From Thermoanaerobaculia bacterium (GTDB lineage Bacteria > Acidobacteriota > Thermoanaerobaculia > UBA5066), in NCBI GenBank assembly GCA_038245905.1, contig JBBRRY010000015.1:14611-78610 (forward strand): a stretch of 64,000 bases of DNA, in the 5' to 3' direction. Within the stretch, counting starts at the first letter, position 1; every line of letters starts with the position of its first letter. This document shows, one piece after another, positions 1,637 to 16,604 of this stretch. The notes beneath the pieces were generated by a model. It was not told where the DNA came from, did not search any database, and was given only the letters and a program-made list of their open reading frames with translations. The position numbers and the translations under genes are program-made.

Positions 1637-2029
1637 TCACCTGTAGATGAGGCGCTCGTGCGACCAGTGGCCAGGGTAGTAACGAGTTCCGCCGCGCACC
1701 CTCTGGTAGCGGGGAGCGATCCAGCGCGCGCGGGCGCGCGGCCGTTCGAACCAGCGGCCGTCGTTCCAGCTCCAGTCCGTACCCGTGTGGTTCCAATACC
1801 CGCCCTGCCATACGTGATTCGGGCCCGGCCGCGCGATGCGGACTTCGTGGCGGCGCTCCGGTGGAGCCTGCGGGACGATGCGGACGTGCAGATCGCCCAT
1901 CATCGGGGGCGCGGGCATCCCGGGCGGCACGGGGGGGTGAGGCTGCGCGATCGCCGTCCCCGCGAAGGGCAAGGCGGCCGCCAGCACGAGGAGAGCGGCG
2001 GAGAGAGTGAGATGTTTGGTTTTTCTCAT
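1637..2029 (-). CDS. Small secreted WxxGxW/YxWGxW-repeat protein
   Basis: Internal ATG at comp(2027..2029) of the 291-aa track ORF gives 130 aa starting MRKTKHLTLSAALLVLAAALPFAGTAIAQP (signal peptide). This is followed by repeated HVWQGGYW, WSWNDGRW and YYPGHW motifs. The upstream part of the track ORF overlaps the STAS gene antisense and looks non-coding. Confidence 0.7.
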   Translation of the reverse strand: MRKTKHLTLSAALLVLAAALPFAGTAIAQPHPPVPPGMPAPPMMGDLHVRIVPQAPPERRHEVRIARPGPNHVWQGGYWNHTGTDWSWNDGRWFERPRARARWIAPRYQRVRGGTRYYPGHWSHERLIYR

Positions 2030-2128
2030 GACTGAGACTCTGCAAGCCTCAGGCCAGAAGGCGACGCTGTGCGGGTCAGAACGCTGGCTTTCGCACCGGC
2101 CTTCTGACATCCTCCGCCCACAAACCCG

Positions 2129-2464
2129 ATGGATCTCTCGCTCCACGAAGACGGAAGTGTCACGGTCGTCACGCTTTCTGGCGACCTCATCATCGGCGAC
2201 GCTGAGGCCGTGTTCAAGAAGACCGTGAGCCGTCTTCTCGAGGAAGGCAAAGTGCAGCTCGTCGTCGATTGCGGAGGCCTCAGATACGTCGATTCGTCCG
2301 GCCTCGGCGCTCTCGTACGCGCGCTCACGACGTCGCAGCACGAGGGCGGCGGGACGAAGCTCCTGGGGGTCCCGTCGTCGCTGCGGAAGCTTCTCGAGCT
2401 GACGAAGCTGGATTCCGTCTTCGAGATGTTCGAACAGCGCGACGAGGCCGTCTCGAGCTTCTAG
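2129..2464 (+). CDS. STAS-domain protein (anti-sigma-factor antagonist, SpoIIAA/RsbV-like)
   Basis: 111 aa. VVTLSGDLIIGDAE...LVVDCGGLRYVDSSGLGALV carries the conserved DSSGL phospho-serine motif typical of STAS antagonists. Confidence 0.85.
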   Translation: MDLSLHEDGSVTVVTLSGDLIIGDAEAVFKKTVSRLLEEGKVQLVVDCGGLRYVDSSGLGALVRALTTSQHEGGGTKLLGVPSSLRKLLELTKLDSVFEMFEQRDEAVSSF

Positions 2465-2491: not shown

Positions 2492-4912
2492 GTGCACATG
2501 GGTGACGTCCACGGAACGGGCCGGACCTCCGAAGCCGAATCCGGCGTTCTCGGAGAGCTCGCGCGCTGCGAGACCGTCGCGCAGAAGGCGGCATGGGCCG
2601 CACGCTGGTGCGCGCGACTCTCCGGAGCGGACATCGCGCTAGTCTTCTGCGTCGACGCGCCCTCCGGCGGGTGGATCGCCCTCGGCGCTTCCGGCGAAGG
2701 CGCGGCGAAGAGCCTTCGCCGCGTCATCCCACGGGATGCGGGCGTCGCGCGGGATGCCGCGCGCAGTCGCGCGCTCCGCGTGATGCGCCGCGACGATGCC
2801 GCTTTCGTTTCCGATCCGATCGTGTCCCTACTCCCGGGGGGCTCCGGATCTGTCCTCATCGCCCCGCTTCTTCTCGACAAGGGTGCGGCCGGCGTGGCGG
2901 CGCTCTCCTTCCGTCAGGAGCCGGCGGCAGAGCGGATCGGGCGGCTCGAAGCCTTCCTGCCCGACGCCGCCGCGGCACTCGATCGCGCGCAGCTCGCGGA
3001 ACGCAAGACGGCCGGGCACCTTTTTGCCATCGAGCGTCTCACGAACCTGTACGACGTCGCGAAAGCGTTCGGCTCGACGATCGATCTGGAAGACCTGTCC
3101 GGACTCATCGCCCGGAAGGCCGCGGACTTCGTGGCGGCCGAGGTCGCGTCGTTCTGGCTTTTCGACTCCGAGGCGGGTGAAGTCTCTCTGGCGGCGACGG
3201 CTCTCAACGAGAACTACGAGATACCGAATCCGCCCGAGTCCATCGGCGGGTCCATCGTCGGGGCCGTCCTCGCGGACCGAACGATCCTGAGAAACAGCGC
3301 GCTCGCGGACGACGATCCCCTCCGGCACGCCGATCCGCCCTTCGAGACACGCTCTGTGCTCGCCGTGCCGCTCGTCGAGGACGACTCTCCGGTCGGCGTC
3401 CTCGTCGCCGCCAACAAGCGCGGGCGCCGCCCGGAGTTCACCGCGGCGGACGAGGAGCTACTCGTCGACGTCGCCCGGCAAGCCGTCGCCGCCTTGCGTA
3501 ACGCGCGGCAGTACGAGGCCGAGAAGAAAGTCGAGGAACTGGACGCCCTCCTCGCGGTGAGCCACGAGATCACCTCGACGCTCGACCTCGACAAGGTGAT
3601 GCGGACGATCGTCAACGGAGCGTCGGCCCTGATCCGTTACGACCTTTGCGCAATCGCGATCCTTCAGCGGGGGAAGCTGCGGATTGGGGCGGTCTCAGGG
3701 GCGTTGGACGTGGACCGGAAAGAGCCGTCGGTTCGGCGGACCGAGGCGCTCCTCGAGTGGGTCTTCTTCGGCGGCTCCGACGTCGCCGTCACGCGCCGCG
3801 AGGACGGCACCATCGCCACCGACCGCCCGGAGACAGAGGAGAAGTTCCGCGCGTTCTTCGACGAGAGCGGCCGCAACGCGTTCTACGGAGTCCTGCTCGA
3901 GGACGACGAGGGAAAACTTGGCGTTCTCGGCTTCGAGTCGACGGAGCCCCTCGAGTTCGAGGCGGAGACCCGGGATCTCCTCCGGATCCTCGTCAACCAG
4001 GCCACCGTGGCCGTCCGCAATGCCCAGCTCTACCAGCAGGTTCCCCTGCCTGGCTTCCTCCGGCCTCTCGCGGAGCGGACACGGAAGCTGCGGGAGCAGC
4101 CCGGCAACCGCGCCCGGCGATGGGTGCTCGGGAGCGCTGGTGCCATGGTCCTTTTGGCCGTCCTGCCGTGGAATGTGAGGGTGTCCGGGCCCGCGCGGGT
4201 CGTGCCGGGCCGGCGGATCCCGGTCACGGCGTCCGTGGAAGGCGTCGTCGAGAGCGTGGCGCATCGCGAGGGGGATGCCGTCGTCGCCGGGGCCGTCCTC
4301 GCGACGCTTCGCGACGACGCCTACCGCGCCGCGGCGGCAGAGGCGCGCGCGGCCGAACAGATCGCCGACTCCGAGGTCTCCCGGCACCGCGCCGAGGGAA
4401 ACGCTCCCGCACTTTTCCAGTCCGCCGCCCGCCGCGACGAATTGCGGGCGCGCGCGGCTCTCGCGGAGGAGAAGCTCGAGAGGACGCGCCTCCGCGCGCC
4501 CGAGGCCGGCATCATCCTGACGCCACGGCTCGAGGAGCGCCTCGGCCAGCTCCTTCCCGCCGGCGCCGAGTTCGCGGTCCTCGCCGAGACGTCCGCCGTC
4601 CTCGTCGAGGTGGCCGTGCCGGAACGGGATGCGTCGCTCCTCGCCGCCGGGCAGAGGGTCGACGTCAAGCTGAACTCATATCCCGCGGCGACGTTCCACG
4701 GGACCGTCGCCCGCCTCGGCGCCGTCGTCCGCGAGGAAGGTGAGGAGCGTTTCGTCATCGCCGAGGCGCGCGTCGAGAACGCGGACGCGCTGCTCCGGCC
4801 CGGAATGCTCGGGAAAGCCAAAGTTTCGACGGGACGCCAGCGGCTTCTCCGCGCCCTCCTCCGCAAGCCGGCGCGCTGGTTCTGGGTACGGCTCTGGCCT
4901 CTCCTGCCGTGA
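2492..4912 (+). CDS. Triple-GAF sensor fused through one TM helix to a HlyD-type membrane fusion (periplasmic adaptor) domain
   Basis: GTG start. Three GAF-type endings are visible: VLIAPLLLDKGAAGVAALSF; SVLAVPLVEDDSPVGVLVAANKRG..ARQAVAALRNARQY; FYGVLLEDDEGKLGVLGFES..VNQATVAVRNAQLY. A TM segment follows (WVLGSAGAMVLLAVLPW). The C-terminus is an HlyD barrel-sandwich/coiled-coil region (VTASVEGVVESVAHREGDAVVAGAVLATL...LRAPEAGIIL...GMLGKAKV). Confidence 0.8.
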   Translation: MHMGDVHGTGRTSEAESGVLGELARCETVAQKAAWAARWCARLSGADIALVFCVDAPSGGWIALGASGEGAAKSLRRVIPRDAGVARDAARSRALRVMRRDDAAFVSDPIVSLLPGGSGSVLIAPLLLDKGAAGVAALSFRQEPAAERIGRLEAFLPDAAAALDRAQLAERKTAGHLFAIERLTNLYDVAKAFGSTIDLEDLSGLIARKAADFVAAEVASFWLFDSEAGEVSLAATALNENYEIPNPPESIGGSIVGAVLADRTILRNSALADDDPLRHADPPFETRSVLAVPLVEDDSPVGVLVAANKRGRRPEFTAADEELLVDVARQAVAALRNARQYEAEKKVEELDALLAVSHEITSTLDLDKVMRTIVNGASALIRYDLCAIAILQRGKLRIGAVSGALDVDRKEPSVRRTEALLEWVFFGGSDVAVTRREDGTIATDRPETEEKFRAFFDESGRNAFYGVLLEDDEGKLGVLGFESTEPLEFEAETRDLLRILVNQATVAVRNAQLYQQVPLPGFLRPLAERTRKLREQPGNRARRWVLGSAGAMVLLAVLPWNVRVSGPARVVPGRRIPVTASVEGVVESVAHREGDAVVAGAVLATLRDDAYRAAAAEARAAEQIADSEVSRHRAEGNAPALFQSAARRDELRARAALAEEKLERTRLRAPEAGIILTPRLEERLGQLLPAGAEFAVLAETSAVLVEVAVPERDASLLAAGQRVDVKLNSYPAATFHGTVARLGAVVREEGEERFVIAEARVENADALLRPGMLGKAKVSTGRQRLLRALLRKPARWFWVRLWPLLP

Positions 4913-7104
4913 GCGCAGCTGCGCCGGACCCGGTCTCGCGGTACGTTGCGGCCGCCCGCGGCGGACGCGGCGCGGCGGCTCTCGCCGCGCGCCACACCCC
5001 TCGGCAGGACCACCCCGCCCTTCGGGCGGACCTCGTCATCCGCCGCCAGGTGCGAATCGGCGAGGTCACCTGGGTCGTCAAGCAACCGGAGGCGAACAAG
5101 TTCTACAACTTCGAGGACGCCGACTGGACCCTCATCGAGCTTTTCGACGGAACGCGGAGTCTCACTGAAATCCGCGAGGAGTACTGCCGGCGGGTCCCGG
5201 GAGGCGAGATCGCCTTCACCCTCATCCTCGACTACCAGGAGATGCTGCAAAGGATCGAGTTCCTGGAGCAGTCGGCGGCCGAGAAGAACCTCCAGCTCCT
5301 GTCGAAGTTCAAGACCCTGAGGCAGAAAGCGGCGGAGGAGCGCGCGGAGGGTTTCAACATCCTCTTCATGCTCTTCAAGGTCTTCGACCCCGACCGGATC
5401 CTCAATCGGACGATCCGGTACGTCCGCTGGCTCTGGAGTCCCCCCGTCGTCGCGGTCGCCTGTGTCGCGTTCCTCTTCACGATCGGTGTCTTCGCGGCGC
5501 GCTTCGACACGATCTGGGCCCAGACGATCGAGCTCTACTCGTTCCTGAGAAAGCCGTTCTGGGACTTCGTCCAATTCTGGGTCATCCTGACCACGATCGG
5601 CTGCATCCACGAGTTCGGTCATGGCTATGCCACGAAGATGTACGGGGGCGAGGTCCATGACATGGGGATCGCCCTCCTCTACTTCATGCCTGCCTTTTAC
5701 TGCGACACGACGGACTCGCTCCTCTTCCCGAGCAAGTGGCAGAAGCTGACGGTCACGGTGGCGGGGATCTACATCGAGGCGATCCTCTGCACGATCGCGA
5801 CGGCGCTCTGGGTGGCGAGCTACCCCGACACGCTTCTCCACGAGCTGGCCTACAAGACGATGCTCTTCACCGGGGTCTCGACGATCTTCTTCAACATCAA
5901 CCCCCTCGTGAAGATCGACGGCTACTACGCGCTTTGCAGCCTCACCGAGATCCCGGAGCTGCGCGAGGAGTCTTTCCGCTGGATGGGCGCGATCTTCCAG
6001 CGCCACATCCTCCGCCTGAACGTCGAGGTGCCGGTCGTGTCGCGGCGGAAGAGGCGGATCTTCCTGATCTACGGTCCGCTCGCGCTGGGCTACATCGGTT
6101 TCATCATGGCGTTCATCACGAAGCTCCTCGACAACTTCTACTCGAAGGTCGTCCCGGAGCTGGCCGTCGTCCTCCTCCTCGTCACGCTCTACTTCTTCTT
6201 CCGGAAGAGGGTCCGCCTCGTCCTCCGGATCTCCCGCCTCTTCTATCTCGACAAGAAGGAGCTCGTCATGTCGCCGCGCGCCCGTCTCCCTCTCCTTGCT
6301 GCCGCCGCCGGCCTCGTCCTCTTTCTCGCCGTCCCCTGGGGCCGGCGGACGATCAGGATGGACGCCGTCCTCGAGCCCGCCGCGTCGGTGAAGGTCGAGG
6401 CCCCGGAGGACGGAGTCGTGCGGGAGGTCTTCGCGCGCGAAGGGGACATCCTGCGGGCGGGCCAACCGCTTTTCCGGATCGAGAGCCCCGGCGTCGTGGC
6501 CGATTCCGCGTCCCTCTCGGCCCGCCGCGCGGGGGCTGCCGACGAGATGGGAAGGAGCTTCCGGTCCGGAGACGCCGGGGAGGTCTATCGGGCCGAGCGG
6601 AAGGAGGGGGCGGCCGCAGCCGGTCTTGCCCTCGACACGGCGCGCACGGCGCGACTCTCCGTGCTCAGCCCGATGGACGGGCGTCTCCTTTCGGAAGGCG
6701 CGGAAAACCTCGTCGGCAGGTGGGTTACGGCAGGAACCGTTCTCGGAACAGTTGGCGCCACGCGGCAGCTCACGGCAGTATTCCCGGTCTCGGAGCGCCT
6801 TCTGACAGACCTTGTGGTCGGAGCGCCGGTTTCGGTGCAGCTTCGCGCGCGCCCGTTCCACATCCTCCACGGCACGATTGTTTCCATAGCTCCCGCGTCT
6901 CAGGCCGCTTCGTCCGACACCCCCCCGGCACTCCGCCCGTCCGAAACGCCCGGCCGCATCGTGGCTGTGGCGCGTTTCGAAAATCCCGACGGCAGCCTGA
7001 AGCCGAGGCTCGAAGGGAGGGCGAAGATCAGGGGGCCTCGGAGCTCGCTCCTCGGAGAGGGCTTCCGGATCCTCTCCCGTTGGCTCCGCGCGATCGCCTG
7101 GTGA
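4909..7104 (+). CDS. Tri-domain membrane protein: PqqD-like (RRE-like) N-terminal domain + M50 (site-2 protease family) zinc metalloprotease + C-terminal HlyD-type adaptor domain
   Basis: GTGA start/stop overlap with the upstream gene. N-terminus FYNFEDADWTLIELFDGTRSLTEIREEY...ILDYQEMLQRIEFLE resembles PqqD/RRE domains. M50 motifs are present: IHEFGHGYATKMYGG (HExxH) and FFNINPLVKIDGYY (NxxPxxxxDG), within multiple TM segments. The C-terminus (VKVEAPEDGVVREVFAREGDILRAGQPLFRIESP ... GRAKIRG) is HlyD-like. Confidence 0.8.
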   Translation: MSAAAPDPVSRYVAAARGGRGAAALAARHTPRQDHPALRADLVIRRQVRIGEVTWVVKQPEANKFYNFEDADWTLIELFDGTRSLTEIREEYCRRVPGGEIAFTLILDYQEMLQRIEFLEQSAAEKNLQLLSKFKTLRQKAAEERAEGFNILFMLFKVFDPDRILNRTIRYVRWLWSPPVVAVACVAFLFTIGVFAARFDTIWAQTIELYSFLRKPFWDFVQFWVILTTIGCIHEFGHGYATKMYGGEVHDMGIALLYFMPAFYCDTTDSLLFPSKWQKLTVTVAGIYIEAILCTIATALWVASYPDTLLHELAYKTMLFTGVSTIFFNINPLVKIDGYYALCSLTEIPELREESFRWMGAIFQRHILRLNVEVPVVSRRKRRIFLIYGPLALGYIGFIMAFITKLLDNFYSKVVPELAVVLLLVTLYFFFRKRVRLVLRISRLFYLDKKELVMSPRARLPLLAAAAGLVLFLAVPWGRRTIRMDAVLEPAASVKVEAPEDGVVREVFAREGDILRAGQPLFRIESPGVVADSASLSARRAGAADEMGRSFRSGDAGEVYRAERKEGAAAAGLALDTARTARLSVLSPMDGRLLSEGAENLVGRWVTAGTVLGTVGATRQLTAVFPVSERLLTDLVVGAPVSVQLRARPFHILHGTIVSIAPASQAASSDTPPALRPSETPGRIVAVARFENPDGSLKPRLEGRAKIRGPRSSLLGEGFRILSRWLRAIAW

Positions 7105-7142: not shown

Positions 7143-7164
7143 ATGGACGCGGGGAGATGCGCCG

Positions 7165-7569
7165 TCAGTCGGCGTTGTCCGTCGCCCGCGCGTTCAGGAT
7201 TTTGGGGGCCGCCTGCGTGCGGGCCGCGGTAACGCGGGGGGCCGCCTGCGCGCGGGCCGCGGTAACGCGGGGGGCCGCCTGGGCGCGGGCTGCGGTGACG
7301 CGAGGAGCCGCCTGCGCGCGGGCTGCGGTGACGCGAGGAGCCGCCTGCGCGCGAGCCGCGGTGACGCGAGCGGCTGCCTGCGCGCGCGCCATGTTGACGC
7401 GGGGGGCCGCCTGCACACGGGCGCTCGTGACCTTGGCCGAAGTCGTCGGCGTCATGGCGGGGTTGTTGCCGAGATTGCTGACGCGGATCTCACCGACGGC
7501 CTGACCGGTCGCCTGCTTGATCTTCGCCTTCTGCTCGTCGGTCAGCTTGATCCGTACTTCGTTTGCCAT
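7165..7569 (-). CDS. Small (134 aa) leader-plus-tandem-repeat protein; candidate exported or processed peptide precursor
   Basis: ATG at comp(7567..7569) preceded by GAAAGAGGAGGCCACC, a strong AGGAGG Shine-Dalgarno. N-terminus is MANEVRIKLTDEQKAKIKQATGQAVGEIRVSNLGNNPAMTP. Then come about 8 copies of an 11-aa unit: 4 perfect RVTAARAQAAP plus the variants KVTSARVQAAP, RVNMARAQAAA, RVTAARTQAAP and KILNARATDNAD. A sigma54 promoter lies upstream. The longer track ORF (7165..7638) has a non-coding-looking N-terminal extension. Confidence 0.7.
   Translation of the reverse strand: MANEVRIKLTDEQKAKIKQATGQAVGEIRVSNLGNNPAMTPTTSAKVTSARVQAAPRVNMARAQAAARVTAARAQAAPRVTAARAQAAPRVTAARAQAAPRVTAARAQAAPRVTAARTQAAPKILNARATDNAD
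7204..7434. repeat. Seven tandem copies of a 33-bp unit (encode the 11-aa repeats of the small ORF)
   Basis: Period 33 with unit starts at 7204, 7237, 7270, 7303, 7336, 7369 and 7402. Consensus on the + strand is GGGGCCGCCTGCGCGCGGGCCGCGGTGACGCGG. Central copies differ by only 1-3 nt and outer copies are more diverged. Confidence 0.9.
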
Positions 7570-7633: not shown

Positions 7634-7649
7634 TGCAAAGAGGGGGCCA
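7634..7649 (-). promoter_or_regulatory. Sigma54 (RpoN) -24/-12 promoter for the repeat-peptide gene
   Basis: The minus strand reads TGGCCCCCTCTTTGCA, against the consensus TGGCAC-N5-TTGCW. GG and GC have the exact canonical spacing. It lies about 65 nt upstream of the ATG at 7569 and 117 nt downstream of the stop of the sigma54 activator gene. Confidence 0.75.
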
Positions 7650-7765: not shown

Positions 7766-9163
7766 TCAGAGGCGGTACTTCCGGCAGAGGTACTTCATCT
7801 GGTTTGCGTCGAGGCCGAGTGCTTCGGCGGCCCGCACCTTCACGCCTCCGGCGCGGGAAATGGCCTGGCTCACGAGCTCCCGTTCGAACCTTCCGACCGA
7901 CTCGGCAAGGGAGAGGTCGGCAGAGTGCGTCGCGGCGGGTTGGGCCGGCTCCCGGGAGCCGCCGGCCCGGCCCAACGTCCCCGGCAGATGCTCCTCCCCG
8001 ATCGTGTCGCCGTCCACCATGAGCGTCAGCATCTCGACGAGGTGTTCCAGCTCGCGCACGTTTCCGCGGAAGATGTGTCGCCCGAGCACCTCGAAGGCTT
8101 CGGACGAGAAGGCCTTCGGGCGGCGGCCATGGCGCTCTGCGGCCCGCGCCGTGAAGAATTCCACGAGCAAGGGGATGTCCTCGCGCCGCTCTCTCAGCGG
8201 CGGAATCCTCAGGATGACGGTGTTCAGGCGATAGAAGAGGTCATTGCGGAACGTTCCCGCCGCCACCTGACGCTCCAGGTCTTCGTTCGTGGCCGCGACG
8301 AGCCGGATGTCGACGTGGATCGTCTTCGTCCCGCCGACCCGCTCGAAGTCGCGCTGCTCGAGGACGCGCAACAACTTGGCCTGTACGGCCGGGGATAGTG
8401 TCGCGACTTCGTCCAGGAAGAGCGTCCCGCCGTGAGCCATCTCGAAACGCCCGGGCCGGGAGGCCACGGCCCCGGTGAAGGCACCCCGCTCATGGCCGAA
8501 GAGCTCGGACTCGGCTAGCGTCTCCGTGAGCGCCGAGCTGTTCACGGCTACGAACGGCCCGTCCCGGCGAGTGCTCCCCCGGTGGATCGCTTCGGCCACG
8601 AGCTCTTTCCCCGTTCCGCTTTCACCGGTCACGAGGACGGTCGCGTCGGTGGGGGCCACCTTCTCGATGGCGGCGAAGAGCCCGCGCATGCTTGGGCTCT
8701 CGCCCACCAGCCCGCCGTACGACCCACGCTTGAAGATCTCCTCCTTCAGCGCCCGGTTTTCAGCCAGGATGCGGTGTCGCTCCAAGGCTCGCCCGAGAAC
8801 GAGGAGCAGCTCCGACTTCTCGAAGGGCTTCCGGAAGAAATCGAATGCACCCAGCTCGACGGCTTTCAGCGCCCAGCGGCGCTCCGCCTCCGCCGTCATG
8901 ACCACGACCGTGGCGGCCGGCTGGCGCTGCCGAATGGCCCGCAGCAGACGGAGCCCCTCTTCCGCCTCGCCCGACGGCGGGAGCCGGAGGTCGACGAGGT
9001 AGACGTCGGGCTCGAGCTCGGCCAGCTTGAGCCCCGCGGCGGCGTCCCCTGCACTGTGGACTTCGAACCTGTCCTTCAGAGCCCAGAGGAGCTGGTCGCG
9101 CAGGAGCGGATCGTCTTCCACGACGGCGAGGCGCCCCTCCACCGTCTTTTGGACCACGCCCAC
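7766..9163 (-). CDS. Sigma54-dependent response regulator (NtrC-family bacterial enhancer-binding protein: REC + AAA+ + Fis-type HTH)
   Basis: REC domain LAVVEDDPLLRDQL...DVYLVDLRLPP. Walker A GESGTGKE. The sigma54-contact loop ERGAFTGAV (GAFTGA) is present. C-terminal HTH KVRAAEALGLDANQMKYLCRKY. Confidence 0.92.
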   Translation of the reverse strand: MGVVQKTVEGRLAVVEDDPLLRDQLLWALKDRFEVHSAGDAAAGLKLAELEPDVYLVDLRLPPSGEAEEGLRLLRAIRQRQPAATVVVMTAEAERRWALKAVELGAFDFFRKPFEKSELLLVLGRALERHRILAENRALKEEIFKRGSYGGLVGESPSMRGLFAAIEKVAPTDATVLVTGESGTGKELVAEAIHRGSTRRDGPFVAVNSSALTETLAESELFGHERGAFTGAVASRPGRFEMAHGGTLFLDEVATLSPAVQAKLLRVLEQRDFERVGGTKTIHVDIRLVAATNEDLERQVAAGTFRNDLFYRLNTVILRIPPLRERREDIPLLVEFFTARAAERHGRRPKAFSSEAFEVLGRHIFRGNVRELEHLVEMLTLMVDGDTIGEEHLPGTLGRAGGSREPAQPAATHSADLSLAESVGRFERELVSQAISRAGGVKVRAAEALGLDANQMKYLCRKYRL

Positions 9164-9165
9164 GC

Positions 9166-9891
9166 CTACACCTGCCGGCCAGGCGCGGCCGGAAGCGGCA
9201 GGAAGAGACGGACGCTGGTGCCCTCGCCCTCCGCACTTCTAACCTCGACGTCGCCCCGGTGGTGGCGCAGGATGCGGCGCGCCGTGTAGAGACCGAGTCC
9301 CACGCCTCCGGGCTTCGTCGTCTGGAACGGCCGGAACAGGCGCCGCCGCACGAACTCTCCCGACATCCCGGGCCCGTCGTCCTCGACGTCGACCACGGCG
9401 AAGTCTCGCGCCCCTCGCCGCTCGAGGCTCGTGCGTACCGTCACGCAGCTCTTCGCGGCCTCCTGCGCGTTCTGAATCACGCCCTGGATCGCCTCTTGCA
9501 AGTAGTAAGGGTCGCCCCAGAGCCCGGGGACCTCGGCGAAGGTCGCGTTCATCCGCGGTGTCGACGCCCGCCCCCGGGGGTGGCACGTGTGCAGGGCCTC
9601 CCGGATCAGGTCGTTCAGATCGAGCGGCACCTTGATGAGGACCGAGTCGCGATGAGCCGACCAGCTTCTCGCGATCCCGTCGAGCTTCTGGACGGTGGAT
9701 TGCAGGAGGTCCGTGGCGCTGCGTTTGAAATCCGGATCGCCGTAGTGCTCCTCCATGTTCGACAGGAGAAGGCTGAGGCGGAGCTCGAGGTTCCGGATGT
9801 CGTGGATGAGGACGGAGTCCTTCGTGGCGCGGATGCGTCGACGCGGGGCAGCCGTGCGTGTCGCCATGGTTTCAGGGCCGGGAAGGCGCAC
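9166..9891 (-). CDS. Soluble histidine kinase (DHp + HATPase_c only; no TM or sensor domain)
   Basis: H-box VLIHDIRNLELRLSLL. N/G boxes VIQNAQEA, VEDDGPGM and GGVGLGLYTARRILRHHRG. The stop lies 2 nt from the regulator start. An alternative start at comp(9865..9867) (MATRTA..) would avoid overlap with the upstream adaptor gene. Confidence 0.85.
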   Translation of the reverse strand: MRLPGPETMATRTAAPRRRIRATKDSVLIHDIRNLELRLSLLLSNMEEHYGDPDFKRSATDLLQSTVQKLDGIARSWSAHRDSVLIKVPLDLNDLIREALHTCHPRGRASTPRMNATFAEVPGLWGDPYYLQEAIQGVIQNAQEAAKSCVTVRTSLERRGARDFAVVDVEDDGPGMSGEFVRRRLFRPFQTTKPGGVGLGLYTARRILRHHRGDVEVRSAEGEGTSVRLFLPLPAAPGRQV

Positions 9892-10657
9892 GGAACGTGA
9901 GCCGGACCGCCATCCCCGGCCGCAGTATTTTTTTCGGATCGTGCTTCACCCGCACGATCACCTGCACCGTCCCGCTGCCCGGATCGATGACGGGGCTGAT
10001 GAACGAGACGCGCCCGCTCGAGCGTGCGTCCGGGAAATCCGGAGCCTCCACGGTCACTTCGTCACCGGTCTTCACGGTCTGAAGGCCGGAGGCCGGCAGA
10101 TAGGCGCGCGCCAGAAGCGGCTGGAGCGCCATCACCTTGAAGAGCGGTTTGCTCTCTTCGAGCGTGAACTTTTCCCCCACGCGCGCGTAACGGTCCGCCA
10201 CGATCCCGTCGAAGGGAGCGCGCACCACGGACCGGTCGATCACGAGTTTCGCCCTCTCCAGCTCCACGAGGGCCAGCTCGTGTCGCGATCTTCTCTGCTC
10301 GAACTCGGCCTCGCTCGTCAGATTCTGGCGGCGCAGCTCCTCGTACCTTTTCAGGTCCGCGAGACTCACGGCGAGCGTCTCCTCCGCGGCTCTCAGATCC
10401 AGGCGGAACTCGCGCTGGTCCAGCGTGGCGAGCGGCTGCGACTTCCGCACGAGCTCGCCCCGCTCGACCTGGATCGAGTCGATCACGCCGCTGACCCGAG
10501 TCGTCACCGTGACTTCCTGCTCGACCATCAGGTTCGAGGCGACGGTGAGCGGCGCAGGAAGCGCCGGCGCCGGCAGAGCGGCGCTGGCCCTCGCGAGCGC
10601 AAGGAGGGAGACGGCGATGAACGCCCGACCGGTAAGCCGGATTGAGTCGCGCGTGAC
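9872..10657 (-). CDS. HlyD/RND-type periplasmic adaptor (membrane fusion protein); start codon uncertain
   Basis: Typical MFP sequence VTTRVSGVIDSIQVERGELVRKSQPLATLD...VVRAPFDGIVADRYARVGE...GSGTVQVIVRV. The first canonical start is the ATG at comp(10526..10528). The in-frame upstream codons encode a signal anchor (RLTGRAFIAVSLLALARASAALPAP). A GGAGG at comp(10663..10667) sits 5 nt before a GTC codon at comp(10655..10657). The track ORF extension to 11137 overlaps the aminotransferase gene and is rejected. Confidence 0.75.
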   Translation of the reverse strand, partial: VTRDSIRLTGRAFIAVSLLALARASAALPAPALPAPLTVASNLMVEQEVTVTTRVSGVIDSIQVERGELVRKSQPLATLDQREFRLDLRAAEETLAVSLADLKRYEELRRQNLTSEAEFEQRRSRHELALVELERAKLVIDRSVVRAPFDGIVADRYARVGEKFTLEESKPLFKVMALQPLLARAYLPASGLQTVKTGDEVTVEAPDFPDARSSGRVSFISPVIDPGSGTVQVIVRVKHDPKKILRPGMAVRLTFRAPSRP

Positions 10658-10695
10658 TTTTTCCTCCAGGGTGTCTGGAACGGAATGATACCGAA

Positions 10696-11922
10696 TCAGG
10701 CGGGCGTGAGCGCGCGCACGAGGCGCTTGAGGGCCTCGTAGAAAACACCAGGCGGCGGCAGGAGGCTGACGACGACGAACGCCTCGAAAGGGAACTCGTA
10801 GAAATAGCCGGGCTGGACGAGCAGATCGTGTGATTCGAGGAGATCGAGGACGAGCTCCTCCTCGGGGCGGACAGCCGGCACGCGGAGGCACGCGGCCCAG
10901 CCGGCCCGGACGGGTAGGACCGTAACACCGCCACCCGCGGGGAAGGCAGCCTTGAGCGCGCGCTCGTTGCGAAGCACGCGCGCCCAGATCGCTTCCGCCG
11001 TCCCGCGCCCGTACTCCAGAAGCCTGGGGAGCGCGAGCTGCACGGGCGTCGAGACGGAGAGATACGAATCCGCAACCCACTCGAGGCGCTCGATCGCCTG
11101 CTCGAGGAGCCCGGCGGGTCCATTCGCGAGTATCCATCCGAGCTTCATCTGCGGGAGGCCGGCCGACTTGGAGAGCCCGCCCAGCGAGAAAACGAGCGCT
11201 TCGGGCGCGTTCGCGGCTGCGGCCACGCGCACGTCGCCGGGCCGGTCCGAGTAGCGATAGTCGACGAACACCTCGTCGGAGACGACGGCGAACCGGCGCT
11301 CCTTCGCCAGCGTCATGAGATCCGACAGCTCCGCGCCAGAGAGGGAGGTGCCCGTCGGGTTGTTCGGATTGACGACGACCACGGCCGCGACGCGACGTCC
11401 TTCCACCTCGACGCGCCGCACTTCCGCCTCCACGGCCGCCGCGTGGAACGCGAAGCCGTCATCGCTCGCGAGCGCGTAGCGGCGCAGCGACAGGCACTCG
11501 AGCTCCGCGAGGGTGTCGAGAAGCGGGTAGGACGGCGCCGGCACGAGGACGACGTCGCCGGGATCGCCCACCAGCTTGAAAAGCCAGCCGTAGGCTTCGC
11601 TCGACGAGGCCGTCAGGACGATCTGGTGCGGGGGCGCGAGAACGCCGTGCAACGCCGCGTAGTAGTTGCTCACGGACGTGCGCGCCGCGAGCAGTCCCCT
11701 CGGATCGGGTGCATACGAGAGGCCGCGGGGATCGGAGAGAGCCGCGAGAATGCGCGCGTCCGGCGCCGACGCAGCGTTGTCGAAGAGGTCGGCTTCGCCC
11801 GAACGCAGAGAGACGGCGGTCGGATTCGACACGGCGAGATCGAGGAACGGGCGCGTTCGCGCCGCGACCGCGCGCGTCAGGCGGTTCACGTCGCGGGGGG
11901 CGGGGATCCGCTGCGAGAACAT
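10696..11922 (-). CDS. Class I/II pyridoxal-phosphate-dependent aminotransferase
   Basis: 408 aa. LDLAVSNPT, VVVNPNNPTG and FSLGGLSKSAGLPQMKLGW (PLP-lysine SKS motif) are typical of AlaT/AspC-like transaminases. Confidence 0.85.
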   Translation of the reverse strand: MFSQRIPAPRDVNRLTRAVAARTRPFLDLAVSNPTAVSLRSGEADLFDNAASAPDARILAALSDPRGLSYAPDPRGLLAARTSVSNYYAALHGVLAPPHQIVLTASSSEAYGWLFKLVGDPGDVVLVPAPSYPLLDTLAELECLSLRRYALASDDGFAFHAAAVEAEVRRVEVEGRRVAAVVVVNPNNPTGTSLSGAELSDLMTLAKERRFAVVSDEVFVDYRYSDRPGDVRVAAAANAPEALVFSLGGLSKSAGLPQMKLGWILANGPAGLLEQAIERLEWVADSYLSVSTPVQLALPRLLEYGRGTAEAIWARVLRNERALKAAFPAGGGVTVLPVRAGWAACLRVPAVRPEEELVLDLLESHDLLVQPGYFYEFPFEAFVVVSLLPPPGVFYEALKRLVRALTPA

Positions 11923-11937: not shown

Positions 11938-14031
11938 TCAGCGCCCGGACACGAGGTCTTCGGGTTTCCACGGCGAGGCGGCGCCGCCGAGGAACCTGTG
12001 GAACCAGTCGAGGTGCGCCGCGTAGTAGAGGCCCATCTCGAACGCGCTCGGCCAGTGGCCCGCCTTCTCGAACACGATCAGGCGCGACGGCACGCCGCGC
12101 GCCTGCAGGTCCGTGAAGAATTCGAGCGACTGCGTATAGGGAACGCGGAAGTCCTTTTCGCCGGTAATGACGAGGCAAGGGGTGCGGAAATCTGTCACGT
12201 ACGAGGACGGCGATTGCTTCGCGTAGAGGTCTCCGTTCTCCCACGGCGCGCCCTTGATGTCCCACTGGGGGAACCAGACCTCCTCGGTCGAGGAGTACAT
12301 CGCGCGCAGGTCGTAGACGCCCATCATCGAGGCGAGGGCCTTGAACCTCGTCGTGTGGCCTTCGAGCCACATCGTCGCGTAGCCGCCCCAGGACCAGCCC
12401 ATCGCGCCCATGCGGCTCTTGTCCACATACGGAAGCCTCTCGAGCGCGTCCGCGACTTTCTCGATGTCGGTCATCACGCGGCCGTTCCAGTCGCCCGAGA
12501 TGGCCGACGTGTAGGCCTGGCCGAATCCGGTCGAGCCGTGCGGATTCGGAAATCCGACGACGTAACCCGCGCCCGGATAGACCTGCCAGTCGCCGCGGTA
12601 GGAGTCCGCCCACTGCTGCTGCGGCCCGCCGTGGATGTTCAGGATGAGCGGGTACTTCTTCGCAGGATCGAAGCCGTGCGGCTTGACGATCCAGACCTGC
12701 ACGGGCTGTCCGTCGGCACCGGGCACGCTGATCTCCTCGGCCGGCCGGATGTCGACCTCGTTTTCGAGGGCGGCGTTGTGCGTCGTCAGGCGCTGTCCCG
12801 CCTCGTCCGCGCCTTTCGCGAGAGAGAGGCGGTAGAGTTCGAGCGGGCTCCCGATGCGGCGCCGCGCGGCCACGGCGAAGGTCACGTCCGGCGCGAGCGT
12901 CCACGCGTCGAGAGACCCGACGGACGACACCGCGCGGAAGGCGCCCGTCGCGAGGACGATCTCGTAGAGCGGCGTTCGCCCCTTCACGTCGGCCGTGAAG
13001 AAGATCCGGCTTCCGTCCCGCGAGAAGTCGAAGTCGCGGACCGCGTTGTCGAACCTGGCCGTGAGGTCACGCTCGGCGCCGGTCGCGCGGTCCCGGAGGA
13101 CGATCCGGAAGCGGTCGGCCTCGTAGCGGGGCGTGAGCTGCCGCTTGAAGGCGAGGAAGCGGCCGTCGGGGGAATAACGCGGCGACCCGTCGTAGCCCTT
13201 GTTCCAGGCCGTGAGATTTTTCGGGACTCCGTCACCCTTCACGGCGACGGTCCAGACGTCCGCGTTCGTCGAGAAGGCGGCGTCCGCGTCGCGGTTCGAA
13301 GAGAACGTGAGCTCGGTCCCGTCCGGCGAGAGGTCGAAGTCCCGCCCGCCACCGACCGAGAAGACGGGCGAGTCGAAGTCGCCCGGTGTCAGGTCGCGAA
13401 TCGCCTTCGCCGCGTCGGGCTCGGCAAGGTCGAGGATGAAAACATGCGTGCGCTTCCCGTCCTTCCACTCGGTCCAGTGCCGGTAGAGGAGGGCGTCCGC
13501 GAGGTGCGCCTTGATCTTGTTCGCCTCGTGCGCGTCGGCCGCCTTCTTGTTGCACGCCGCGTCGGCGCCGCAGGAGGGGACGACGTCCGCCGCGAAGAAG
13601 ACGGACCGGCCGTCCTTCGAGAAGGCCGGCCCGTCGATCCCTCCGGGGAACCGGGTCTTCTGCTCGGCCTCGCCGCCGCCAAGAGGGAGGAAGAAAAGCT
13701 GCGGTTCACCCGTACGCGTCGAAACGAACGCGAGCGTCTTTCCGTCAGGCGAGAAGAACGGGTGCTCGTCGCGCGCGTCGCCTGCGGTGATCGGCCGGGC
13801 GTTTGTCCCGTCCGCGTCCACGCGCCAAAGGGCGGCGGTCTTCCTCTTCGTCGCCCAGTCGTTCGTCGTGACGGTGTAGACGATCGCCTTCCCGTCGGGC
13901 GAGATCGCGGGCTCGCCGACGGCCTTCACGCGATAGAGGTCCTCGAGCGTGAAGGCGCGGCCGGAGGAGGCGGCGAGAGCGGGAGAGGCGAGGACGAAGA
14001 AGAGGGCGAAGGCGGTGGACAGTTTCGGCAT
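11938..14031 (-). CDS. Secreted S9-family serine peptidase (prolyl oligopeptidase/acylaminoacyl-peptidase type; N-terminal beta-propeller + alpha/beta hydrolase)
   Basis: Signal peptide MPKLSTAFALFFVLASPALA. Repeated propeller motifs (SPDGK.., FSPDG.., YSPDGRFLAF). Catalytic GxSxGG in MGAMGWSWGGYATMW. C-terminal GEKDFRVP and AGHW motifs. Confidence 0.9.
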   Translation of the reverse strand: MPKLSTAFALFFVLASPALAASSGRAFTLEDLYRVKAVGEPAISPDGKAIVYTVTTNDWATKRKTAALWRVDADGTNARPITAGDARDEHPFFSPDGKTLAFVSTRTGEPQLFFLPLGGGEAEQKTRFPGGIDGPAFSKDGRSVFFAADVVPSCGADAACNKKAADAHEANKIKAHLADALLYRHWTEWKDGKRTHVFILDLAEPDAAKAIRDLTPGDFDSPVFSVGGGRDFDLSPDGTELTFSSNRDADAAFSTNADVWTVAVKGDGVPKNLTAWNKGYDGSPRYSPDGRFLAFKRQLTPRYEADRFRIVLRDRATGAERDLTARFDNAVRDFDFSRDGSRIFFTADVKGRTPLYEIVLATGAFRAVSSVGSLDAWTLAPDVTFAVAARRRIGSPLELYRLSLAKGADEAGQRLTTHNAALENEVDIRPAEEISVPGADGQPVQVWIVKPHGFDPAKKYPLILNIHGGPQQQWADSYRGDWQVYPGAGYVVGFPNPHGSTGFGQAYTSAISGDWNGRVMTDIEKVADALERLPYVDKSRMGAMGWSWGGYATMWLEGHTTRFKALASMMGVYDLRAMYSSTEEVWFPQWDIKGAPWENGDLYAKQSPSSYVTDFRTPCLVITGEKDFRVPYTQSLEFFTDLQARGVPSRLIVFEKAGHWPSAFEMGLYYAAHLDWFHRFLGGAASPWKPEDLVSGR

Positions 14032-14924: not shown

Positions 14925-16604
<1,680 letters not shown>

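Follow-up and report, generated by a model that had tools for sequence, protein, structure and literature searches.

In PCAT/AMS systems with HlyD-type accessory proteins, one inner-membrane machine recognizes the leader of a double-glycine-leader bacteriocin, removes it and exports the core. AgrB/AgrD-type circuits have a membrane protease that processes a small precursor whose gene is under adjacent two-component control. In MpaP, a recognition element (RRE) for peptides that are made on ribosomes and modified after translation (RiPPs) is joined N-terminally to an intramembrane site-2 protease that removes daptide leaders, and daptide precursors carry the motif ELExMEAP, which is cut after the proline (bioRxiv 10.1101/2023.03.08.531785). 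For EpeP/YydH, the M50 protease of epipeptides, a dual role in cleavage and export of its peptide has been proposed (PMC10885120). Here, we describe a gene from a Thermoanaerobaculia bacterium (contig JBBRRY010000015.1; the window is the whole stretch of 64,000 nucleotides analyzed) that joins an RRE-like domain, an M50 protease and a periplasmic HlyD adaptor in one polypeptide. This domain architecture is essentially certain. The protein probably stands at the center of a module for leader-guided maturation and export of peptides, one in which leader binding, cleavage and export are all inferred, in a diderm, Thermoanaerobaculia-like bacterium of the Acidobacteriota; the products of neighboring leader-bearing small genes are its likely substrates. 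It is the domain fusion, together with the adjoining tandem-repeat peptide gene, that makes the locus read as a widespread peptide processing and export machine without a conventional transporter.

Architecture and distribution of the RRE–M50–HlyD fusion

The gene and its parts, with residues numbered in the fusion protein, are as follows:

4909–7104, plus strand: RRE–M50–HlyD fusion gene, 731 aa, an uninterrupted open frame
5026–5262, plus strand: predicted RRE/PqqD-like winged helix, beta3-alpha3, residues ~40–118 (AlphaFold2 and Foldseek)
5440–6342, plus strand: polytopic M50/site-2-protease core, residues ~178–478, with seven transmembrane (TM) helices and a re-entrant beta-hairpin at 252–265
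5608–5622, plus strand: HEFGH zinc-binding and catalytic motif (H234, E235, H238), invariant in both alignments described below
5899–5922, plus strand: NPLVKIDG motif (N331–G338), with D337 as the presumed third zinc ligand
6343–7104, plus strand: HlyD/MFP adaptor domain, consisting of a lipoyl-like part, an alpha-hairpin (527–553/556–581), a beta-barrel and a C-terminal amphipathic helix

An initial annotation of the region had proposed a single protein made of a PqqD-like recognition domain, an M50 intramembrane protease and an HlyD adaptor. Pfam, together with AlphaFold2 and Foldseek, confirmed this three-part organization, and the strings quoted in its favor were all found (FYNFEDADWTLIELFDGTRSLTEIREEY; HEFGH at residues 234–238; NINPLVKIDG at residues 329–338). 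The open reading frame (ORF) has a GC content at third codon positions (GC3) of 0.88, the value expected of coding DNA, in a window of 68% GC. Its GTG start (4909–4911) overlaps the TGA stop (4910–4912) of the upstream 806-aa GAF-HlyD ORF in the string ‘ccGTGAgc’, so the GTGA overlap proposed as translational coupling of the two genes is real. An identical 4-base overlap occurs in two related contigs (L001 and L002), and the alignment gives a start position common to the orthologues. Several long shadow ORFs cross the locus, such as one of 849 aa at 4321–6870 on the minus strand, as is typical of high-GC DNA.

The closest database relatives share 53–100% identity with the fusion, are nearly all about 731 aa long and come from Acidobacteriota/Thermoanaerobaculia metagenome bins. 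Proteins of this family are common in databases, where they are annotated only generically: NCBI labels the orthologues ‘HlyD family efflux transporter periplasmic adaptor subunit’, and JGI labels them ‘putative peptide zinc metalloprotease protein’, with the KEGG name yydH. A search with residues 33–480 against 1.84 billion cluster representatives (clusters of 50% identity) gave 1,717 matches below 1e-30, and 107 of the best 150 have the length of the fusion. A scan of species-representative genomes yielded at least 599 confirmed loci, from which the 80 best-scoring were kept; most matches in the kept loci extend from the N-terminal domain into the adaptor. The three-part architecture is not a chance juxtaposition, since it recurs in those 107 representatives and in the at least 599 loci of the genome collection. 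The kept loci come from Acidobacteriota, among them the cultured Granulicella sp. S190, and from Gemmatimonadota, Planctomycetota, Verrucomicrobiota, Binatia, Alteromonadaceae and other taxa. Locus counts given from here on are over 82 related loci.

Foldseek with the full-length model returned adaptor proteins only, and the N-terminal domain was therefore modeled on its own. The isolated AlphaFold2 model has a predicted local distance difference test (pLDDT) score of 84 and contains strands at 43–49, 52–59 and 64–69 and helices at 70–76, 85–95 and 103–115. Its nine best Foldseek matches in the PDB are all RREs (TbiB1, a lasso-peptide synthetase B1 protein and CteB), with probabilities of at least 0.96, after which the probability falls to about 0.2. 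The TM-score normalized to the target is 0.65–0.72 for six stand-alone RRE proteins (0.70 for leader-bound TbiB1 and 0.72 for leader-bound 6jx3). It is 0.14–0.15 for CteB, a sactipeptide enzyme with an N-terminal RRE, a low score that arises because the RRE is a small part of a chain of 420–440 residues. At the level of sequence families, Pfam PqqD (PF05402) is matched by 11 of 72 diverse homologues (best E 5e-5), and the NCBIfam daptide_HExxH model spans both the N-terminal domain and the protease (residues 53–431, E 1e-49, below its cutoff).

The evidence on this domain is not all on one side. The Foldseek E-values of the RRE matches are modest (2e-3 to 0.1), and HMMER found no PqqD match at E ≤ 10 in the fusion, whether the whole protein or the isolated N-terminal domain was searched. 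A profile of 27 orthologous N-terminal domains run against all PDB sequences gave only noise, with no solved RRE matched. The PqqD-like similarity put forward in the initial annotation accordingly holds by fold and through Pfam in the 11 homologues, and fails as a direct HMMER match of the fusion itself. Homology to RREs is transitive, as homologues match Pfam PqqD although the fusion does not; on fold prediction and transitive homology taken together, we conclude that the PqqD/RRE reading of the domain is correct.

By all its sequence features, the fusion belongs to peptidase family M50. Pfam Peptidase_M50 (PF02163) matches residues 223–329 with 35.5 bits (cutoff 27.2) and is also matched by 69 of the 72 diverse homologues. 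Conservation was assessed in two alignments, one of 40 orthologues and one of the 72 homologues at 23–48% identity. Residues H234, E235, H238, P332, D337 and G338 are invariant in both, while N331 shows no variation across the orthologues and is conserved to at least 90% in the more diverse alignment, which bears out the expectation that the M50 motifs are kept in orthologues. Among the 150 best cluster representatives, HExxH is present in 141 and NxxPxxxxDG in 137, and both motifs occur in 103 of the 107 full-length ones. Conservation along the fusion, in the alignment of 40 orthologues, is highest over the M50 part.

In the AlphaFold2 model, the predicted TM1 (178–197) is followed by helix 217–244, inside which HEFGH is located, by the re-entrant beta-hairpin (252–265) and by TM helices 276–303 and 309–326. 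The unwound NPLVKIDG segment comes directly after the last of these, and the chain continues through cytoplasmic helices (337–367) and TM helices at about 384–403, 413–431 and 456–474 into the adaptor domain. Each of the two large cytoplasmic loops contains 9–10 Lys/Arg residues, compared with 1–3 in the periplasmic loops. Hydropathy, the positive-inside rule and the AlphaFold model thus agree on an N-in/C-out topology with seven TM helices. Given seven membrane crossings, the RRE is placed in the cytoplasm and the HlyD domain in the periplasm, as had been proposed. Both the model and hydropathy put HExxH and D337 at the cytoplasmic ends of out-to-in helices, which is the arrangement of RseP-type site-2 proteases.

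The C-terminal domain is a genuine adaptor fold. Over residues 494–671, Pfam reports HlyD_3 (E 1e-15) and HlyD_D23 (E 6e-11), and Biotin_lipoyl is also matched. The full-length AlphaFold2 model (pLDDT 77) shows, after TM helix 456–474, a lipoyl-like sandwich, an alpha-hairpin of 27 + 26 residues and a beta-barrel, and its best Foldseek matches in the PDB are MexA, AcrA, MacA and ZneB at E ~1e-13. At E 1e-33 to 1e-26, the profile of the 72 homologues finds MacA and EmrA as well as an RND membrane-fusion protein (6vej).

Candidate precursors and neighboring genes

Three features absent from the initial annotation bear on the role of the fusion: a probable substrate gene on the minus strand just downstream, a third, small HlyD protein, and the existence of known RRE–site-2-protease fusions. 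The candidate precursor and its promoter comprise the following:

7165–7569, minus strand: candidate substrate precursor, 134 aa, with a hydrophilic leader MANEVRIKLTDEQKAKIKQATGQAVGEIRVSNLGNNPA and tandem 11-residue repeats (RVTAARAQAAP-like)
7204–7422, minus strand: DNA tandem array encoding the peptide repeats, with a 33-bp period, 6.6 copies and 88% matches (Tandem Repeats Finder)
7634–7649, minus strand: sigma-54-type −24/−12 promoter element TGGCCCCCTCTTTGCA, a perfect match 64 nt upstream of the precursor ATG

The candidate precursor gene is convergent with the fusion operon and has a strong ribosome-binding site, GGAGG. As read from the sequence, its product has no signal peptide, TM or hydrophobic segment, and it ends in ...TDNAD. 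The orthologues in L001 and L002 keep the leader and have entirely different repeats (LNAK/LNAR units in L001; 17 SLKSP units in L002), and eleven database homologues show the same leader with variable repeats. A hidden Markov model of the leader matches 17 ORFs in 14 loci, the window counted; no Pfam or NCBIfam family was matched by the precursor leaders. The repeat units RVTAARAQAAP (window), RKAMP (L026) and SLKSP (L002) end in proline, and so does the leader junction of the Gemmatimonadota precursors. A Pfam Apolipoprotein match in the repeats (30.5 bits against a 90-bit cutoff) was taken as an effect of low complexity and 11-mer periodicity. The plus-strand ORF at 7157–7504 (115 aa, ATG start, AACARAAVTRG units), which gene finders could mis-call, is a shadow over the 33-bp repeats; it was rejected because conserved leader, ribosome-binding site and promoter all go with the minus-strand frame.

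The promoter pattern TGGC-N7-TTGCW has two matches in the window, where 0.32 are expected, and 4 of 100 shuffles reach two. A matching element lies 67–70 nt upstream of the precursor gene in L001 and L002, and, among 40 candidate precursor genes, 19 have a relaxed sigma-54 pattern 61–106 nt upstream, all of them in loci with an adjacent sigma-54 regulator. The second match in the window, TGGCCTGAGGCTTGCA (2041–2056, minus strand), lies only some 10 nt ahead of the ATG that opens a 131-aa ORF (1637–2030, minus strand) with a signal-peptide-like N-terminus MRKTKHLTLSAALLVLAAALPFAG and a weak match to WXXGXW repeats. This ORF might belong to the same sigma-54 regulon, or the match may be due to chance.

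Candidate precursor genes with a conserved leader and a variable core, either repeats or a short core, lie beside the RRE-bearing fusion gene in the window and in at least 34 of the 82 loci. They occur in three arrangements: convergent downstream of the fusion, as the first gene of the operon, or in multi-copy arrays. The type A leader (…[IV]R[IV]xLTxEQKxxI…) precedes tandem repeats in the clade of the window. In Gemmatimonadota, it runs on as …AIELTAEELEERIAP, followed by cores of 5–11 residues or by mini-repeats, for example …ERTMP-RKAMP-RKAMP-RKAMP-RKAIP-RKSF; these loci combine a daptide-like leader with the absence of a sigma-54 regulator. The type B leader (M[ST]IQKKSLIxN…KKAI…) is found in Terriglobales-type loci, always convergent just downstream of the fusion, and its cores are Lys/Arg-rich repeats of 3–12 residues (VGLSKQ, LAKGT, ATKNL, GGKNL, GRA, KAAPKLM). 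An unbiased all-versus-all clustering of small intergenic ORFs recovered the same two leader families, besides STAS genes and their antisense shadows.

Some individual loci add further observations. In a Gemmatimonadaceae metagenome-assembled genome (MAG), six tandem small genes (L044, 10138–12425, minus strand) encode leaders ending in ELE(E/Q)RI(A/T)P. Their cores, of 3–11 residues, differ (LVIKMG, IMLG, AQIGTFF, LYLQ, LRI and TSIDSSIGTFF). This array resembles the multi-precursor arrays of daptide clusters, but it adjoins an RRE–M50–HlyD gene. In an Acidobacteriota MAG, three near-identical ORFs of 33–35 aa (MAKKEAKPAAKGGKKTLKGSSKVGNTKLMFG…) lie downstream of the fusion (L003, 10136–10867, minus strand) and may represent a third type of precursor, without repeats.

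The remaining genes of the locus that accompany the fusion are listed below:

2129–2464, plus strand: STAS-domain protein, anti-sigma-antagonist-like, 111 aa (Pfam STAS E 6e-18; NCBIfam ant_ant_sig 63 bits)
2492–4912, plus strand: GAF-HlyD partner, 806 aa, with cytoplasmic GAF domains, one TM segment and a periplasmic HlyD adaptor
7766–9163, minus strand: sigma-54-dependent response regulator, 465 aa (Pfam Response_reg, Sigma54_activat E 7e-70, HTH_8)
9166–9891, minus strand: soluble histidine kinase, 241 aa, with no visible TM or sensor domain (Pfam HATPase_c E 6e-21)
9872–10660, minus strand: third adaptor, a small HlyD-family protein of ~262 aa with an N-terminal hydrophobic segment; its start is uncertain

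On the plus strand, the operon runs from the STAS gene through GAF-HlyD to the fusion, and the whole gene arrangement around the fusion is kept in L001 and L002. The STAS gene holds the same position in both contigs, is present in 24 of the 82 loci by tblastn and was recovered by the small-ORF clustering. GAF-HlyD matches Pfam GAF over two stretches (E 3e-23) and HlyD_D23 over residues 575–773 (E 3e-21), and it co-occurs with the fusion in 50 of the 82 loci, across phyla, where its N-terminal part was detected upstream of the fusion. The sigma-54 regulator, the presumed activator of the precursor promoter, adjoins the fusion in 31 of the 82 loci and in L001 and L002, where the kinase and small HlyD genes also keep their places. 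The small HlyD protein matches HlyD_D23 (E 2e-24) and HlyD_3 (E 8e-22) and is homologous (E 4e-22) to a gene between GAF-HlyD and the fusion in the Granulicella locus L010. The trio of GAF-HlyD, small HlyD and fusion is present in Acidobacteriota, Planctomycetota and Alteromonadaceae; a small HlyD gene adjoins the fusion in all three loci of other phyla that were scanned with Pfam, and in several further loci tblastn located HlyD-like matches in the interval from GAF-HlyD to the fusion. In an Alteromonadaceae locus, a gene for a TolC-like outer-membrane factor (OEP) directly follows the fusion (E 5e-51).

Other observations concern the regulatory genes and the flanks of the module. The kinase and the regulator are most like PrsK and PrsR of PEP-CTERM systems (TIGR02916 at E 1.5e-41, over the C-terminal part only; TIGR02915 at 429 bits against a cutoff of 503), and the kinase is without the membrane and sensor part of PrsK. 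In four Terriglobales-type loci (L015, L016, L020 and L022, ~12750–13290, plus strand), the STAS gene is followed by a conserved ORF of ~146 aa resembling an anti-sigma-factor/HATPase-like serine kinase (…VALAVQEALANAVVHG…), which suggests a partner-switching pair attached to the module there; the window has the STAS gene only, without this kinase-like ORF. A class I/II aminotransferase gene at 10696–11922 is not conserved in L001 or L002. A secreted protein of the S9 prolyl-oligopeptidase family with PD40 beta-propeller repeats (11938–14031, minus strand; Peptidase_S9 E 6e-50) is encoded 1.3 kb past the small HlyD gene; a post-proline peptidase near an AAP-R-rich precursor is suggestive, and the gene is not there in L001 or L002. 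At 14925–16604 on the plus strand lies an ABC-F type protein with two ABC_tran domains and ABC_tran_Xtn. It has no membrane domains and is not a transporter, and it is unlikely to energize the module.

Proposed function and competing explanations

The features described above would fit a sequence of five steps. The sigma-54 response regulator and the soluble kinase would switch on the precursor gene from its −24/−12 promoter, as the promoter match and the adjacency of the genes suggest. The leader would then dock on the RRE (residues ~40–118), to judge from the fold; as happens in lasso-peptide B1 proteins, it would probably do so by beta-strand addition. By homology with MpaP and EpeP/YydH, the M50 core, with its active site facing the cytoplasmic leaflet, would cut the leader from the repeat core. 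In the weakest step, which is suggested by the architecture, the basic repeat peptide would cross the inner membrane, whole or in units, and leave through a conduit of three HlyD domains (those of the fusion, GAF-HlyD and the small HlyD protein) docked to an outer-membrane factor encoded elsewhere. As the module includes no ABC, RND or MFS transporter, the role of inner-membrane partner to the adaptors would fall to the protease itself. Finally, and speculatively, the GAF domains and the STAS protein may gate the machine.

Several findings weigh against this maturation and export reading. No ABC, RND or MFS transporter gene was found within ±10 kb in L001 or L002, nor among the neighbors in the window, whereas, to our knowledge, every characterized adaptor works with an energized transporter; the locus is also without an energy source for export. 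An outer-membrane factor gene adjoins the fusion in only 2 of the 82 loci. The RLS TolC-docking motif (R-x3-L-x6-S) is absent from the hairpins of both large adaptors, in which it was sought, and the alpha-hairpins are poorly conserved. A purely regulatory role would likewise agree with the many signaling parts of the locus (STAS, GAF, kinase and sigma-54 regulator). As for the substrate, neither the leader patterns nor the small-ORF clustering found precursors in the Planctomycetota or Verrucomicrobiota loci, although short-pattern searches of this kind would miss a third leader family, and the ELExxxAP motif is not in the window precursor.

A first alternative starts from the signaling genes. 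Classical site-2 proteases function in signaling, and the RRE–M50 part might destroy the small repeat protein, or another cytoplasmic regulator, and so control the sigma-54 circuit, the HlyD domains serving as periplasmic modules for oligomerization or sensing. The presence of a STAS protein, GAF domains, a sensor-less kinase and a sigma-54 activator in one locus would suit such regulated proteolysis, as would the lack of a transporter, of an RLS motif and, usually, of an outer-membrane factor. However, three separate adaptor-fold proteins are kept together across phyla, and in two loci an OEP gene comes directly after them. The small proteins have hypervariable cores and often come in several copies (six genes in L044), as is usual for exported products and not for regulators. 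In addition, the Gemmatimonadota versions consist of 5–11-residue cores behind a daptide-like leader, with no sigma-54 regulator, and the closest characterized relatives, MpaP and EpeP, are peptide maturation proteases. We therefore regard regulated proteolysis as a rather improbable account of the locus.

A second alternative accepts the domain assignments and denies that the repeat genes are substrates: the fusion would mature a different peptide or protein from another place in the genome, or act as the accessory protease of an efflux system with an unlinked transporter. In its favor, about half of the related loci, among them every Planctomycetota locus, yielded no precursor, and the window precursor is without the ELExxxAP motif that daptides share with the Gemmatimonadota relatives. 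Nevertheless, small genes with a leader keep tight linkage to the fusion across three gene orders and two leader families; besides STAS, they are the sole conserved small ORFs. Moreover, a conserved leader with a freely varying core is the signature of RRE-recognized precursors. A different substrate thus appears improbable to about the same degree. That the fusion is a mis-annotated HlyD protein, an ordinary efflux or type I secretion adaptor with a degenerate, non-proteolytic protease domain, agrees with the NCBI label of the orthologues but is scarcely credible, since the catalytic motifs are kept down to 23% identity and in 103 of 107 full-length representatives, M50 is the best-conserved region and no transporter gene accompanies it.

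Leader-guided maturation and export remains our preferred reading, and a bolder form of it may be formulated. The locus would encode a new trans-envelope secretion system, in which a leader-recognizing intramembrane zinc protease, and not an ATP- or proton-driven transporter, is the engine of a hetero-oligomeric ring of three adaptors. Its substrates would be unmodified multi-core precursors of a new class, with tandem repeats cut up to give a short basic peptide in many copies, and their production would be under sigma-54 two-component control. We put this complete model forward tentatively, as an unlikely extension.

If the proposed function is true, diderms of poorly studied phyla (Acidobacteriota, Gemmatimonadota, Planctomycetota, Verrucomicrobiota and others) would share an export route that needs no ABC, RND or MFS pump, which would change the view of what partner a periplasmic adaptor requires. 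RRE-guided leader removal would extend from Gram-positive RiPP pathways, such as those of daptides, to a fused, envelope-spanning format. A large unannotated family of leader-plus-tandem-repeat genes, which gene callers easily miss or place on the wrong strand, would gain a function, and their peptides might act as signals or antimicrobials, or as surface or matrix components, in abundant soil bacteria. The family lends itself to direct testing: the locus is compact and has only a few small genes, a substrate is predicted and the active-site mutants to make are clear.

Comparison with known systems

RRE–site-2-protease fusions and periplasmic adaptors are each already known, and we found no description of a protein that joins the two in the literature searched. 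In a full-text search, no paper described an RRE–M50–HlyD fusion, which does not prove that it is undescribed. Neither a transporter-less three-adaptor module with GAF and STAS proteins nor sigma-54-controlled leader-plus-tandem-repeat precursors were described there, and a 2025 survey of RREs makes no mention of the fusion. Mentions of ‘M50’ in two adaptor reviews were spurious, being residue M507 and a DOI, and a TMcin preprint concerns a different, Gram-positive member of the clan. Membership of the fusion in a daptide, epipeptide or NHLP/PCAT system was ruled out by below-cutoff scores together with the missing modifying enzymes, ABC transporters and precursor hallmarks.

The likeness to AgrB/AgrD-type circuits is by analogy only: the protein families are unrelated, and here the kinase is soluble without a visible sensor and the regulator is sigma-54-dependent. 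PCAT/AMS systems with HlyD-type accessory proteins are similar in logic; here, an RRE takes the place of C39 recognition and a zinc intramembrane protease that of C39 cleavage. There is no C39 peptidase, ABC ATPase or GG-type leader in the locus, and nothing replaces the ATPase; the NHLP HlyD model TIGR03794 gave no significant match (E 0.059).

With the adaptors of tripartite pumps and type I secretion (MacA, MexA/AcrA, EmrA and HlyD), the fusion has in common an N-terminal TM anchor followed by the fold made of lipoyl, alpha-hairpin and beta-barrel parts. Several adaptor genes likewise stand in one operon, with an OEP gene adjacent in two relatives. The difference is that the adaptor here is fused to a protease instead of standing beside an ABC, RND or MFS transporter, that it has no RLS motif and that its partner bears large cytoplasmic GAF domains.

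EpeP is likewise an intramembrane protease of family M50, devoted to a small ribosomal peptide, and its model NF058609 matches residues 214–354 of the fusion (E 6e-13). This match covers the catalytic core only, and its 49 bits are below the cutoff of 225. EpeP has neither an RRE nor an HlyD domain, and the radical-SAM epimerase and ABC transporter genes of epipeptide loci are absent from the window locus.

MpaP differs in having no HlyD domain and in coming from monoderm Actinomycetota and Bacillota, and the fusion scores 169.4 bits against the 300-bit cutoff of NF041824 (daptide_HExxH). The DUF–RRE protein MpaB, the oxidative decarboxylase, the class III aminotransferase and the methyltransferase of daptide pathways are absent from the window locus, whose precursor carries tandem repeats and ends in ...DNAD instead of the invariant Thr. 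The two systems nevertheless have in common an N-terminal RRE joined to an M50 protease and clustered short precursor genes with conserved leaders, and the daptide motif ELExMEAP resembles the EELEERIAP of the Gemmatimonadota precursors.

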